Positions 20,077 to 59,233 of a DNA stretch of 64,000 nucleotides are shown piece by piece. Positions within the stretch are counted from its first letter, which is position 1. Each line of letters begins with the position of its first letter. The position numbers and the translations under genes are program-made. The stretch lies in the NCBI GenBank assembly GCA_964399075.1, contig CAYNPK010000002.1, positions 20,418 to 84,417 of the forward strand. The letters are read 5' to 3'. The notes under the pieces were generated by a model, which was not told the DNA's origin, did not search any database, and was given only the letters and a program-made list of their open reading frames with translations. This DNA is from an uncultured Candidatus Saccharibacteria bacterium (GTDB taxonomy: Bacteria; Patescibacteriota; Minisyncoccia; Phycocordibacterales; JACOZG01).

Positions 20077-20681
20077 TAGGCGTTTAACATCGAGCTTAAT
20101 TTTTTTAAATGACCCGCTGAGCCATTAAATATCCAATCCGAATGTTTTGTGAGTCGATTGCATAGCTGATTAAATTTCTTAGCGTCTCCTATTAGCTTTA
20201 AATTATAATTTTTAATTACATCCAACAATTCAGCTTTATTTTTTTCTAAATTTTTTGCGTTAGACATTTTTTCTACCTCTACATAAGCGATTGACCCAGC
20301 TTTGACTAGTGTCAATGTGATATTATTTCCCAAATCAAAATTAAAATTTTCACGTTCGGTAACTTTTGAAGCAAGTCCAAGTAGCGAAAACGTTTTCGCT
20401 AGATCAACGAATCGCTCCTTTGTAATTTTTCGAGAATCTTCGACCCGATCGTGAGTGTGGAAATCTCCTCTTTTTATAACAATTTCGGCTTCATTGTTTG
20501 AGTTTATGCGAACTCTAATATCAACATTTACTTTGTTTATTTCTCCCAAAAACATAACCGACAATCTTTTTGTCTTGGATATTTGTTTATTTGTTTTATT
20601 TAAACCACTAAGTAGTTTTCTAAATTGAGTAGGAGTGACTTCTGCCCTCAATTCAAGTTCTATGTTGTTATTATTTGACAT
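20073..20681 (-). CDS. CYTH-domain protein (paralog)
   Basis: MSNNNNIELELRAEV start. Homologous to 9442..10056. Confidence 0.6.
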   Translation of the reverse strand: MSNNNNIELELRAEVTPTQFRKLLSGLNKTNKQISKTKRLSVMFLGEINKVNVDIRVRINSNNEAEIVIKRGDFHTHDRVEDSRKITKERFVDLAKTFSLLGLASKVTERENFNFDLGNNITLTLVKAGSIAYVEVEKMSNAKNLEKNKAELLDVIKNYNLKLIGDAKKFNQLCNRLTKHSDWIFNGSAGHLKKLSSMLNAY

Positions 20682-51093: not shown

Positions 51094-51537
51094 ATGATAG
51101 AAAATAAGCGGGCGTACTTTGATTATGAGATTATAGAAAAACTCGAAGCGGGGCTAGAACTCCGCGGTTTTGAGGTTAAGGCTATCAGGGCCGGCAAGGC
51201 TTCTATTGTCGGCTCGCGGGTGATTATTCGTGGTGGCGAGGCTTTCTTGGTTGGAACGATAATTCAGCCTTATCAAGCTAATAATCTGCCCAATAACGCT
51301 GATTCTTCTGATAAACCTCATCGTTTATTATTAAATACTAGAGAGATTAATCACTTAGATGAAAAGAGTCGGCAGGGTCGCTTGACAATCGTACCTCTTA
51401 AGGTTTATAATAGTCATGGTCGTCTAAAAATAGAAATTGCCCTAGTGCGAGGCAAGAAGCGCTTCGACAAGCGCGAGAGCATCAAGAAGCGTGACACCAA
51501 GCGACAAATAGACCGGACCTTGAAAAATAGGGACTAG
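51094..51537 (+). CDS. smpB: SsrA-binding protein SmpB
   Basis: KRAYFDYEIIEKLEAGLELRGFEVKAIRAGKASI. Confidence 0.9.
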   Translation: MIENKRAYFDYEIIEKLEAGLELRGFEVKAIRAGKASIVGSRVIIRGGEAFLVGTIIQPYQANNLPNNADSSDKPHRLLLNTREINHLDEKSRQGRLTIVPLKVYNSHGRLKIEIALVRGKKRFDKRESIKKRDTKRQIDRTLKNRD

Positions 51538-51618
51538 TAATCAGGGATTAGGTGATAAGGGTCAGGTGTTAGTGGGATACTAATCCCTAAAACCTAATTT
51601 CTAATCCCTAATCCAATT

Positions 51619-52008
51619 GGGGATGATCGGCTTCGACGTGTGAAGGGATCTCTCGAAGCAAGCCGAGGTAACTCCAACCTCGTTAAACTCGGAGTATTCA
51701 GGTAAGTGCAAACTCATCTGACGACAGCGTTGTATCACCATACTTCGCTCCTTCTTACGCTTTAGCCTAAGGAGGCATTTATTCATCAGGAGGCTGGCTA
51801 GTGATGAATAGGTGAAATATTTTGCCAGCTAGAGTTGCCAATTGTCTCATTGGCAACTTGAATTCCGTCAATGGCGGAACATCGAGGCTCGACCACGCGA
51901 TCTTTTGTTGGCTTATTGTTGCGCTGGTTTAACATCTTAAACCGACTAAGCTTGTAGAGTTCTTTAGATTTTTTTACTCGGACGCGGGTTCGATTCCCGC
52001 CATCTCCA
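51619..52008 (+). ncRNA. ssrA: tmRNA (ssrA); tag reading frame 51708..51770 encodes ANSSDDSVVSPYFAPSYALA
   Basis: 5' GGGGATGATCGGCTTCGACG and 3' GGACGCGGGTTCGATTCCCGCCATCTCCA with a G3:U70 acceptor pair. Resume codon GCA, tag ends YALA-stop. Immediately downstream of smpB. Confidence 0.8.
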
Positions 52009-52021
52009 CTAGACCAAAAAT

Positions 52022-52047
52022 GGCCACCTTTACGGTGGCTGTTTTTG
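52022..52047 (+). terminator. intrinsic terminator after ssrA
   Basis: GGCCACC-TTTAC-GGTGGC + GTTTTTG. Confidence 0.5.
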
Positions 52048-52146
52048 TGTCTTGCTGGAGCGGGTTGGGGGAATCGAAAGCCGGAACCGCCGAAGAGGCG
52101 GTGAGGCGGGGTCGCGCAAATTTTCAGCAGAAAATTATGTGTGACC

Positions 52147-52164
52147 GATTCCCGCCATCTCCAC
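52147..52164 (+). repeat. 18-bp direct repeat of the tmRNA 3' end (GATTCCCGCCATCTCCAC; first copy 51992..52009) - att-site-like scar
   Basis: Exact 18-nt duplication 155 nt downstream of the intact copy, followed by ACCA. Confidence 0.55.
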
Positions 52165-52287
52165 CACTTCGCTCCTCGGATACTCGGAGCTACGCGGTGC
52201 AAGCACCACAAGAATACCTGCCACAAGCGGGTGTTTTTGACTTTCTGTTTTTGGATGTTTACGTTGGTAAATTAATAAGTTAAAATA

Positions 52288-52917
52288 ATGACCATGGACG
52301 ACCTATTTTTAATTTTATTTTTTGTTTCGTTTGTTTCCTTGGTTGTCGGTTTGATAAGGCCAACCGCTTTTTCTCGTTTTATTAAAGGTGAAATAACGCG
52401 AAAAAAAATAATTACAATTTTTGGAATTGCAATAGTCGCTTCTTTTGTTTTGTTTGGTATTGCTAATGATAACTCAAAAAATAACAACGAAGTCTCCACG
52501 CAACCTGTTATAGAAAAGACCAGCATCCCACCTGCATCAGTAAAAACAGAAACAACCCCCACAACAACACAAGCACCAACCCCAATTACCGTTAAAATCG
52601 AGGATAAACCTGAACCAATATCAAGCGAGACAACTAGTCAAAAAAACGCTGTTAAAAAAGCAAAATCTTACTTGGGTTACTCAGCTTTTTCTCACAATGG
52701 GCTGGTCGCTCAATTGGAGTACGAACAATTTTCACACGCTGACGCGATTTATGGTGCAGATAATTCTGGTGCTAATTGGAATGAACAAGCAGTCAAAAAG
52801 GCCAAATCGTACATGGAATATTCAGCTTTTTCACGCGGTAGTTTAATTGAACAGCTAAAATATGAGGGATTCACGCAAGCACAAGCAGAGCATGGGGCTA
52901 ACGCGGTTGGTTTATAG
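52288..52917 (+). CDS. Ltp-family lipoprotein-like protein (two Ltp repeats; prophage superinfection-exclusion type) with N-terminal TM
   Basis: Tandem KAKSYLGYSAFSHNGLVAQLEYEQFSHADAIYGA and KAKSYMEYSAFSRGSLIEQLKYEGFTQAQAEHGA. Confidence 0.55.
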   Translation: MTMDDLFLILFFVSFVSLVVGLIRPTAFSRFIKGEITRKKIITIFGIAIVASFVLFGIANDNSKNNNEVSTQPVIEKTSIPPASVKTETTPTTTQAPTPITVKIEDKPEPISSETTSQKNAVKKAKSYLGYSAFSHNGLVAQLEYEQFSHADAIYGADNSGANWNEQAVKKAKSYMEYSAFSRGSLIEQLKYEGFTQAQAEHGANAVGL

Positions 52918-53179
52918 TGATACAAATAAGGACAAGGTAAAAAGTGTAAATCCTAGATCTTTTTCGCTCATAATCCAAAATTACAAATCGACAACACGAG
53001 CAAAAAGACGAACGAAAGGCCGAGATAGCTAATTTTATGCACACAATCCATAACGTCAAATATGTAACCGAGGAATCATTTGAAGTAGTGAAAAACATAC
53101 TAGGATTCAAGAAAATTAATGATTATTACAAACTTGGTTGGAAAGCTTTTCTCAATAGTCAGAAAATAAAATCGCAAGA

Positions 53180-53824
53180 ATGAAAACATTTTTTATTGAT
53201 GAATCAGGAAATTTGGGAAGCAAGGGTAGGTATTTTGTTATTACTTTGCTTGCTCCACAAAAAAGTAAACGCATAAATAATTTTATGCGTAAATTTTGTG
53301 CCAAGAATTTTCTCAAAGAAGTAAAAGCAAGTCAGCTTTCTTTTTCGCAAAAGCAGTTTATTTTTAATAAGCTATGCAGTGCTAATGACTATAATATTTT
53401 CTATATTGTTGCCGATAAATTAAACATTGATAACAAAAAAATACTTGAGGATAAAAACTTGTGCTATAACTACCTTTTTTCTTTTTTAGTGAAGAAAACC
53501 ATCAAAAGCACTCAAGAGGACATCACTCTGTTACTTGATAATCACTCCACAAAAGTAAAATCCATAAACTCATTGGCTGATTACATCAAAATCAAAGCTT
53601 TTACACAATGGGGTTTTACACACGATCTGAATATTTTCTATGTCGATTCAAAAAATTCAAAAATTGTACAAGCCGCTGACATTGTTTCAAATGCAATTTA
53701 TGCGAAATACACTTACGGAAAGGATCATTTTTATAGAAAACTTACCATTAGCGAATCTATTAAGTTTCCATATAGTAAATTTGCCCCAAAACCACCTGTG
53801 GATAACAGCTTATTGACTCCGTAA
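53180..53824 (+). CDS. DUF3800-family protein
   Basis: N-terminal FFIDESGNLG. Very AT-rich. Confidence 0.5.
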   Translation: MKTFFIDESGNLGSKGRYFVITLLAPQKSKRINNFMRKFCAKNFLKEVKASQLSFSQKQFIFNKLCSANDYNIFYIVADKLNIDNKKILEDKNLCYNYLFSFLVKKTIKSTQEDITLLLDNHSTKVKSINSLADYIKIKAFTQWGFTHDLNIFYVDSKNSKIVQAADIVSNAIYAKYTYGKDHFYRKLTISESIKFPYSKFAPKPPVDNSLLTP

Positions 53825-53918
53825 TACACTTCGCATATACTTAAATTGATGTAAATCTTGTGCGGAGCTTAATGTAAGTAAGTGACGTATTCCGTCACCG
53901 AAGCACAAGTTGTCTTGA

Positions 53919-53948
53919 GAAGCCCTGCGGGGCTTTTCTTTTTTTTAT
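53919..53948 (+). terminator. intrinsic terminator closing the AT-rich islet
   Basis: AAGCCC-TGCG-GGGCTT + TTCTTTTTTTT. Confidence 0.5.
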
Positions 53949-56615: not shown

Positions 56616-56649
56616 GATGTCAGTAGTTGATTTCTTGGCCTCTTAATGC

Positions 56650-57108
56650 TTGAATACCTATTGGCGTCGTTCATTTTTTCTTGACCTTTGTTACGGAGGA
56701 AGACTAGTGAGAGCAAGCAAGACTGAAAGGTTGCTCTGCGGTTGTCAGGATCCCGATTGTTTTGATCCAGTATTTGTCCCTAAAGGATTGAGACTCCGAC
56801 TCTCGCGGGTTACCGAGGCCTGTGTCTGTGTTCGTGGCCACAAGCCACCACCCGACATGGTGCGGGTGACTGACGAAGATGAGGAATTTCCTGTGGGTCC
56901 CTACGACATCTATTGTCTCCCGGGCCAGCACTTACCACCCTCACGCAGACTACAGCCAAAGTCTCAGTCTTATTTACCACCTAAGTCTCCACCCAAGCCT
57001 AACCACGCTCGCGGTTTTTGTCATCCGGTCGAGGTTGTTGATCCCAGGCCTGACGAGCCACCGAATAATGATAGGCGAGTACCTCGACATCCAGAGAAAA
57101 GAGATTAG
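56650..57108 (+). CDS. Cys/Pro/Asp-rich GC-rich protein of unknown function (start TTG 56650 or GTG 56707 after GGAGGA)
   Basis: LLCGCQDPDCFDP...CVCVRGH...PPKSPPKPNHARGFCHP. Composition atypical for this genome. Confidence 0.35.
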   Translation: MNTYWRRSFFLDLCYGGRLVRASKTERLLCGCQDPDCFDPVFVPKGLRLRLSRVTEACVCVRGHKPPPDMVRVTDEDEEFPVGPYDIYCLPGQHLPPSRRLQPKSQSYLPPKSPPKPNHARGFCHPVEVVDPRPDEPPNNDRRVPRHPEKRD

Positions 57109-57137
57109 TCCTGGGTGGACTAGAGGAGGATTCACCA

Positions 57138-57173
57138 AACACCGTCGGCTTTACTGTTGGCGGTGTTTTCTTT
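57138..57173 (+). terminator. intrinsic terminator before ftsH
   Basis: AACACCGTC-loop-GGCGGTGTT + TTTTCTTT. Confidence 0.5.
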
Positions 57174-57185
57174 ATAATAGCGAGA

Positions 57186-59159: not shown

Positions 59160-59233
59160 TGCGCGTGCTTGGATTCGAACCAAGGGCCGCCGAGGTATAA
59201 GCTCGGTGCTCTAACCAGCTGAGCTACACGCGC
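59160..59233 (-). tRNA. tRNA-Ile, anticodon UAU (74 nt, no encoded CCA)
   Basis: GCGCGTG acceptor, GTAGCTCAGCTGGTTAGAGC D-arm, anticodon loop CTTATAC, TTCGAAT T-loop. All stems pair. Confidence 0.7.

Follow-up and report, generated by a model that had tools for sequence, protein, structure and literature searches.

In a 64-kb window from an uncultured Candidatus Saccharibacteria bacterium (64,000 nucleotides, positions 20,418 to 84,417 of contig CAYNPK010000002.1, assembly GCA_964399075.1), the transfer-messenger RNA (tmRNA) gene ssrA is followed by a short, structured sequence and then by a second copy of its own 3' end. Comparison with related loci (denoted by L numbers below) shows that this sequence belongs to a previously undescribed family of elements lying just 3' of tmRNA and tRNA genes in Patescibacteria. 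An earlier note on the window had interpreted the duplication as the scar of a phage or island integration at ssrA, with an AT-rich two-gene islet as its remnant. An insertion that displaced the native 3' end of the gene is indeed what the locus suggests, but the islet is not the insert, as it lies beyond the second copy.

The duplicated 3' end of ssrA

The window contains a standard one-piece ssrA gene with a tRNA-like domain, a tag reading frame and smpB nearby (Table 1). Rfam RF00023 matches it over its full length (51619-52011, model positions 1-374) with 137.9 bits against a threshold of 47, and the acceptor stem GGGGATG/CATCTCC, as read from the sequence, includes the G3:U70 pair. Together with the ARAGORN prediction, this confirms the gene and its ends as first described. 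The tag does end in YALA, but this is no oddity: YALA, YAFA, FAFA or YAIA endings are the rule across 62 related loci, and the tag is normal for the clade.

The exact direct repeat, whose start-to-start spacing of 155 had been noted correctly, is 19 nt long rather than 18 nt (CGATTCCCGCCATCTCCAC, at 51991-52009 and 52146-52164; the two copies are hereafter X1 and X2) and spans T-loop position 3 to one base beyond the discriminator. No third copy was found in the 64 kb with 3 mismatches allowed (chance expectation 0.01), and no other attachment (att) half-site, such as the earlier note proposed to search for, was found in the window. Neither 8-10-mers nor local alignment revealed further tmRNA-end fragments downstream.

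The two copies enclose 136 nt (52010-52145), which are non-coding, contain no open reading frame (ORF) of note and fold far better than shuffled sequence (z = -6.0); what the repeats bracket is just this gene-less interval and not an integrated islet. It begins with a terminator hairpin (T1). The extended stem of T1 reaches outward into X1 and, on the opposite side, into X', which is a copy of the tmRNA 3' end in antisense, so that the whole makes up a single long palindrome. The terminator scan reported the T1 hairpin on the minus strand only (52039-52023), and the plus-strand T1 rests on folds. X' is followed by a core of two hairpins (B and C) with the junctions AGCCGGA..., GAGGCGGGGTCGCG and ...GTGAC. 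The anti-T part of X' is intact, its anti-acceptor part is shortened, and a hairpin present in relatives (hairpin A) is absent; with this short anti-acceptor arm and lost hairpin A, the window copy is partly decayed. The covariance model of the family (CM R1, see below) scores it at 83.3 bits (52045-52166).

A duplicated gene segment reaching from the T-loop to the 3' end is a classic sign of an ssrA insertion that rebuilds the gene and displaces its native end. Downstream of the interval, X2 continues into CCA-CTTCGC...GCTACGCGGTGC, and the same trailer stands directly 3' of the intact tmRNA genes of three relatives (L020, L024 and L049), where it reads CCACCACTTCGC ... GCTTCGCGGTGC. Because the trailer equals that of these intact genes, we take X2, the trailer and a second terminator (T2) to be the original 3' end of ssrA. 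Judged from these boundaries, the insertion is 155 bp, from inside X1 to the end of the core. A further comparison comes from L011 and L012, whose tmRNAs are 98% identical over 375 nt, yet differ throughout the T-arm and also in their flanks; in L012, which carries the element, X2 is the L011-type end (CGATTCTCCCCACCTCCACCA) and X' fits the new X1.

A duplicated tmRNA end may also arise in assembly, as in a GTDB genome (L039 6229-6370) where the duplication lies across a run of N; this case has no element and was set aside as a scaffolding artefact. For the window, however, we regard a chance match or an assembly artefact as practically negligible, considering the low chance expectation, the lack of Ns in the window, a contig from an independent Logan assembly (L281) in which the order core-X2-trailer-Ltp gene is confirmed, and the same architecture in dozens of independent assemblies. 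Two unusual forms of the gene were also ruled out, namely a permuted two-piece tmRNA (RF04321 reaches only 25.4 bits against 47) and an intron-containing tmRNA, as the gene is complete upstream of the insertion and 136 nt are too short for a group I intron (PMC11915505).

Table 1. Features of the ssrA locus and the downstream islet (positions within the 64,000-nt window)
Feature	Position	Strand	Basis and remarks
smpB, tmRNA partner protein	51094..51537	+	PF01668, E=3e-47; 81 nt upstream of ssrA
ssrA (tmRNA), standard one-piece	51619..52009	+	ARAGORN, tag ANSSDDSVVSPYFAPSYALA and stop; Rfam RF00023, 137.9 bits
X1, first 19-nt copy, T-loop to discriminator+1 of the live tmRNA	51991..52009	+	followed by TA and a canonical terminator, not CCA
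T1, intrinsic terminator hairpin GGCCACC/GGTGGCT and T run	52011..52052	+	folds
X', antisense copy of tmRNA 3' end, TGGAGCGGGTTGGGGGAATCG	52056..52076	+	21-nt inverted repeat, 71% complementary; folds; alignment
Conserved core: hairpin B domain 52080-52107, hairpin C 52110-52146	52077..52145	+	fold, covariation, covariance model
X2, second 19-nt copy plus CA (encoded ACCA), read as displaced native ssrA 3' end	52146..52166	+	trailer matches L020/L024/L049
Native ssrA trailer and terminator T2	52167..52245	+	CTTCGC, hairpin 52171-52190, GCTACGCGGTGCAAGCAC; T2 52209-52239 and T run
Ltp-domain protein, putative membrane protein	52288..52917	+	PF07553, E=3.1e-24; PHROG 'superinfection exclusion' families; outside the repeat pair
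DUF3800 protein	53180..53824	+	PF12686, E=9e-16
Small RNA linked to DUF3800 gene, ~95 nt	53813..53948	+	promoter 53813-53841, terminator 53917-53948

An element family behind tmRNA and tRNA genes

The layout seen in the window is shared by many Patescibacteria smpB-ssrA loci, each with the tmRNA 3' end sequence of its own genome, which is recopied 130-190 nt downstream with an inverted copy in between. The earlier note had itself named the possibility that the repeat is part of a conserved ssrA-linked structure in relatives, and this is partly borne out, as many related genomes show such a structure. From 5' to 3', the family order is X1, a palindromic spacer with a terminator, an anti-acceptor segment, hairpin A, an anti-T segment, the two-hairpin core, X2 and a second terminator; in most relatives the conserved hairpin A splits X'. 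The elements are ORF-less, about 110-165 nt in size, and their core junctions have the consensus GAAYCGAA-AGCCGGAGCGATG ... CGCGAGGCGGGGTCGCG ... YGTGAC.

An alignment of 11 elements supports seven helices, with 89% of cells paired compared with 38-48% when the partners were slid, and compensatory changes on both sides were found in 34 of 42 pairs; the observed values were reached by none of 500 shuffles. The helices between X' and X2 (P1 and P2) are 83-89% paired and also contain compensatory changes. When G-U and A-C mismatches were compared as a strand test (18 versus 11), there was no decisive preference.

CM R1, built from this alignment and applied to the loci examined, detected 27 copies at E<0.01, and the family thus has at least 27 members. 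Fifteen of them are situated immediately 3' of a tmRNA gene, and another two follow one at a greater distance (118 nt in L053, approximately 2.2 kb in L027). Of these tmRNAs, four had been missed by ARAGORN and were confirmed by Rfam. Another seven are located just 3' of tRNA-Ile(UAU) and two just 3' of tRNA-Ser(GCU), whereas one (L133) is an orphan. All gene-adjacent copies are on the strand of the gene. It should be mentioned that, of the tRNA genes, those located close to smpB in these genomes are tRNA-Ile and tRNA-Ser, and sampling limits the range of targets seen. The element is present at approximately 12-30% of the sampled tmRNA, tRNA-Ile(UAU) and tRNA-Ser(GCU) genes and is absent, for example, from L087, L089, L045 and L068.

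The arms of the long-form copies behind tRNA genes match the neighbouring tRNA (L027, and tRNA-Ser in L048 and L018); L027 has GAATCCAAGAGGGCGGA three times, together with the antisense TCCGCCCT...GGATTCGAAC. A shorter form without most of the arms also exists, and the short tRNA-Ile copies have no X2. Besides the main core, a second type with an AAGGTT...AACCTGNAC-hairpin was identified. The core of the window copy shares 85% identity with the L081 core and 82% with the core of the tRNA-Ile copy of L006, while the corresponding tmRNAs have only 66% and 57%, and core subtypes are common to tmRNA-linked and tRNA-Ile-linked copies of distant genomes. Decay is frequent: L081, L092, L051, L018 and L027 have a decayed X2, and L038 has a truncated core. 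Tandem arrays of diverged or near-identical units were found in L019, L027, L110 and L294. The array of L294 (2830-3319, minus strand), at the end of an IMG/VR contig whose genes look chromosomal (cysE, galE and cdd), has at least three elements, two of them near-identical and one older, truncated and nested; its units are separated by copies of a tRNA-like 3' end (CAAATCCCTCCCTCTCCG), and the tRNA itself would lie beyond the contig end.

No Rfam family matched the element in the window, L007 or L027 even at relaxed thresholds, and no description of it was found in full-text literature searches. Hammerhead, hepatitis delta virus (HDV)-like, K-turn, box C/D, group I intron and permuted tmRNA structures were considered from sequence and did not fit.

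A different conserved tmRNA 3' flank was observed in L020 (4104-4230), L024 (10935-11065) and L046 (3235-3400). It consists of CCA-CTTCGC, a terminator, GCTTCGC(G/A)GTGC..., GAAGTGGTGGA (antisense to the tmRNA end and trailer), another hairpin and a small GIY-YIG gene. This flank may represent another type of element associated with tmRNA 3' ends; the window keeps only its first part, after X2.

Proposed mobile insertion, possible host RNA and known systems

Our favoured reading, in which we have roughly even confidence, is that the family represents small, ORF-less, non-autonomous insertion elements that rebuild the 3' ends of tRNA and tmRNA genes. Such an element would give the gene a replacement 3' end (X1) and a terminator (T1), and the native 3' end (X2, CCA, trailer and T2) would be pushed downstream. 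The element would be, or would once have been, mobile and non-autonomous, inserting by site-specific recombination at the T-loop with a recombinase supplied in trans. In the folded single strand, X' would pair with X, capped by T1 on one side and the core on the other, and the paired strand would imitate the double-stranded target, in the manner of the attC sites of integrons and the attP hairpin of CTX phage. Mobility is supported by the patchy presence, the frequent decay, the tandem arrays and the core subtypes that cross gene types, and the variation of the arms along with genome-specific tmRNA 3' ends also supports this reading.

Several observations weigh against it. Reading of translations and Pfam scans of six ORFs revealed no recombinase, transposase or reverse transcriptase beside any copy, and no integrase or recombinase was seen in the 64-kb window, whose ORF translations were read by eye only. 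No clean empty site was obtained, the lineage of the window being unsampled (its SpoIIE-like neighbour matches only itself). Viral contigs, on which L294 is the sole true match, yielded neither a circular or otherwise free copy nor junction sequences; CM screening attributed almost all other pattern matches on viral contigs (14-16-mers) to chance. The copies within the L027 genome have all diverged, and they thus give no sign of a recent burst. The 5' strand of the T-stem in L012 is also unlike that of L011, which a simple crossover at the T-loop does not predict, and a simple insertion does not explain why arms that match the target alternate with conserved parts (X'1-A-X'2-core). Finally, the strong conservation of the junctions and of the foot of hairpin C across deep lineages could point to a host-beneficial RNA rather than to mobility.

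The latter alternative, a host-beneficial structured RNA that is co-transcribed with the tRNA or tmRNA gene or read through from it, is in our opinion possible but not probable. One version of it, which we likewise put forward only tentatively, is a tRNA-like mini-helix, in which X' and X2 would form a 12-19 bp helix resembling an acceptor plus T arm and ending in NCCA, and which could be processed by RNase P, 3' trimming enzymes and the CCA-adding enzyme. In another version, the RNA would act in cis or trans as an antisense regulator of the upstream RNA's 3' end or would aid its processing. The duplication would then be old, with the arms tracking the gene by selection or gene conversion. Such an RNA would account for the strong covariation in all helices, the conservation of the junction sequences across deep lineages and of the core beyond that of the tmRNA, the constant position and strand relative to the gene, and the terminator that most copies have after X2. 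In addition, where X2 has decayed, X' is still complementary to the 3' end of the live gene, as the duplex energies of X':X1 and X':X2 illustrate (-34.4 versus -25.3 in L081, -28.6 versus -17.2 in L051, and -30.0 versus -18.3 in L018). However, the patchy occurrence given above, the frequency of decayed or truncated copies (the window X', L038, L051 and L081) and the L294 array with nested, truncated units speak against a beneficial RNA. Moreover, a terminator lies between the gene and the element in most loci, the scan found no promoter-like site ahead of X' in the window, and a role as RNA could be fulfilled without arms identical to the neighbouring gene.

There is also a real chance, though one well below even, that a conserved scaffold (hairpin A and the two-hairpin core) with interchangeable arms defines a new class of ORF-less mobile element or guide-like RNA programmable for tRNA and tmRNA 3' ends. 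The arms, which we can describe as interchangeable only with comparable reservation, would be complementary and identical to the last ~20 nt of the neighbouring tRNA or tmRNA gene. An element of this class could act as a folded recombinase target mimic, or else engage the mature 3' end as an RNA with an antisense or primer-binding role.

Returning to the mobile insertion that we favour, its closest counterparts may be the genomic islands and prophages that reside in tmRNA and tRNA genes, with a T-loop sublocation (Williams; Islander/TIGER; PMC4383910, PMC11915505). As with integrase islands, the element restores the gene with its own sequence and terminator, leaves the displaced native 3' fragment as a direct repeat, and occurs in tandem arrays at the same gene; in contrast to them, the insert is 136 nt instead of kilobases, has neither integrase nor ORF, possesses covarying structure and an antisense copy of its target inside, and has one and the same core at three RNA genes. 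Folded single-stranded recombination substrates are known from integrons (attC sites) and from CTX phage (the attP hairpin). Like these, the element has an imperfect inverted repeat that folds into a double-stranded copy of the site and a structure conserved beyond sequence; a branched tip is tolerated, arrays form beside a fixed site and ORF-less units occur. However, the R/L-box consensus GTTRRRY is missing, no IntI or XerCD was found near any copy, the target is an RNA gene and the core sequence is conserved. Cis-mobilizable elements (CIMEs) and miniature inverted-repeat transposable elements (MITEs) are non-autonomous elements, and the family resembles them in being small, gene-less, repeat-flanked, patchy and often decayed, but its ends match the neighbouring gene instead of being constant and its copies lie only 3' of tRNA and tmRNA genes. 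The primer-binding sites of retroviruses and long terminal repeat (LTR) retrotransposons complement tRNA 3' ends and are bipartite in Ty1 and Ty3. In a similar way, X' complements 18-21 nt of a tRNA or tmRNA 3' end, including the CCA in L081 and L012, and is sometimes bipartite; this is a resemblance only, since there are no reverse transcriptase and LTRs and X' forms a palindrome with the adjacent gene.

The Ltp/DUF3800 islet, other loci and implications

The existence of an AT-rich two-gene islet downstream of T2, as described in the earlier note, is supported by the PF07553 and PF12686 matches and by a GC content of 0.29-0.41 across it compared with 0.42-0.50 in the flanks. The Ltp protein (209 aa) has two hydrophobic N-terminal segments, a Pro/Thr-rich linker, two Ltp repeats and no cysteine. 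Its repeats and its PHROG match are in line with what had been proposed, but it cannot be the lipoprotein it was thought to be because there is no cysteine anywhere; instead, it appears to be anchored in the membrane by the two N-terminal segments. Ltp of Streptococcus phage TP-J34, a superinfection-exclusion lipoprotein, resembles it in the two Ltp repeat domains, whereas the window protein lacks the lipobox cysteine, has hydrophobic anchors instead and is not in a prophage context (no phage genes were found around it in the window). Ltp homologues with 60-75% identity are common in Patescibacteria chromosomes and often follow an XRE-type helix-turn-helix (HTH) gene (three adjacent cases); one is near a large serine recombinase.

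The DUF3800 domain has an RNase H-like fold (PMC10910872, PMC7736814). Homologues of the window protein with 66-90% identity form more than 120 clusters from several candidate phyla in unrelated contexts. The closest relatives of the window SmpB are of the Wolfebacteria and Paceibacteria type, with 57% identity in the genome collection and 63% in metagenomes. Because DUF3800 proteins from other candidate phyla are up to 90% identical, far beyond the housekeeping SmpB at 63% at most, horizontal spread is suggested, and the islet genes look like accessory, horizontally moving genes. PADLOC found no defence-system model that matches the four window proteins tested.

DUF3800 genes have been reported to pair with non-coding RNAs of unknown function (PMC5737381), and a small RNA (sRNA) also follows the DUF3800 gene of the window. 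Its promoter (TTGACT-17-TATACT, conserved as TTGAC(T/C)) has a -35 box that overlaps the end of the DUF3800 ORF, and it ends in a hairpin (53917-53938) and T run; the islet's own terminator pointed out in the earlier note is thus the 3' end of this sRNA. DUF3800 is always followed by this RNA, which is near-invariant in four genomes (the window, L282, L290 and L291), with two compensatory pairs. The Rfam DUF3800-I motif (RF02969; Weinberg et al. 2017, PMC5737381) aligns end to end with the window RNA (53826-53948), which starts at the stop codon and, like the motif, lies beside a DUF3800 gene and ends in a terminator; the score of 28.4 bits, however, is below the gathering score of 44.2, and the window RNA is a divergent Patescibacteria variant. 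In a Sungbacteria genome, inverted repeats of about 200 bp (L286 3685-3900 and L282 1975-2190), each with a terminator-like palindrome and GC-rich hairpins, flank a 2-kb segment with an HTH gene, a short-chain dehydrogenase gene and DUF3800 plus sRNA, just 3' of a tRNA-Leu.

Whether the islet belongs to the insertion is a separate question. That Ltp and DUF3800 are the remnant of a decayed phage or genomic island integrated at ssrA, with the repeat as its att scar, seems improbable to us. The repeat does have the form of an att site at the T-loop sublocation, the islet is AT-rich, the Ltp domain matches superinfection-exclusion families, the Ltp homologues described above include neighbours of recombinase and HTH genes, and those of DUF3800 span candidate phyla in varied contexts. 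In L027 (11050-13250, behind ssrA), an element is followed by 2 kb with three ORFs (one DUF3592 and two without family), a tmRNA-end fragment (GGCATCTCCA), a terminator and a second element, so gene-bearing DNA can lie between elements in arrays. Nevertheless, the islet of the window is outside the repeat pair, with the native ssrA trailer and T2 between it and X2, no third or partial tmRNA-end copy follows downstream, and the integrase that the earlier note proposed to search for was not seen among the translations. The 136-nt interval is a member of a conserved covarying family and not a random leftover, and neither Ltp nor DUF3800 occurs within 10 kb at any of the other 160 smpB-ssrA loci. 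The four window proteins had no phmmer match among the six-frame ORFs of 80 genome loci. One candidate flanking repeat of the islet, CACTTCGC, stands both behind X2 and behind the DUF3800 gene, but the two places align poorly, and no other convincing repeat was found. The Ltp gene and the DUF3800 gene with its sRNA are separate accessory modules outside the insertion, and nothing ties the islet to the repeat.

Several other features of the window were observed. A perfect sigma-70 consensus (TTGACA-18-TATAAT, 51382-51411) lies inside smpB, towards its 3' end and 208 nt ahead of the tmRNA 5' end; it may serve as the ssrA promoter, in which case the leader would be long. In the smpB-ssrA spacer (51528-51615), TAATCCCTAA-like units recur, and 51528-51551 forms an imperfect inverted repeat of 24 nt with 51580-51603. 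A tRNA-Ile gene with the anticodon UAU (59160-59233, minus strand) is located a few kb from ssrA and is syntenic in 48 related loci; this anticodon is unusual in bacteria, in which AUA is normally read by a lysidine-modified CAU. Between the htrA-like gene and ftsH there is a 570-nt gap (56616-57185) with a GC content of 0.52-0.55 compared with approximately 0.42 and only ORFs of odd composition; it was dropped as an RNA candidate (no Rfam match, fold z = -1.65 and +0.17). A cluster of several radical-SAM/SPASM-type, SET-domain and repeated paralogous proteins of unknown function at positions 1-24000 looks like peptide-maturation or other accessory loci.

Insertion at tRNA and tmRNA 3' ends is textbook knowledge for integrase-bearing islands, whereas the inserted unit here is a gene-less structured module of about 150 nt with an antisense copy of its target and the same core at three RNA genes. 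Such elements make false att scars, which will be misread by island-finding software and by human readers. The DUF3800 gene and its sRNA extend an unexplained protein-RNA association to Patescibacteria, with the promoter, RNA and terminator unusually well conserved. To our knowledge, mobile elements of Patescibacteria have hardly been described. If the element is mobile, it would be a minimal tRNA/tmRNA-targeting element whose specificity apparently resides in exchangeable arms, and it would point to an unknown recombinase or reverse transcriptase in these bacteria. If it is a host RNA, it would represent a new class of conserved non-coding RNA with a link to how the 3' ends of tRNAs and tmRNAs are matured or controlled in organisms whose RNase set is reduced.

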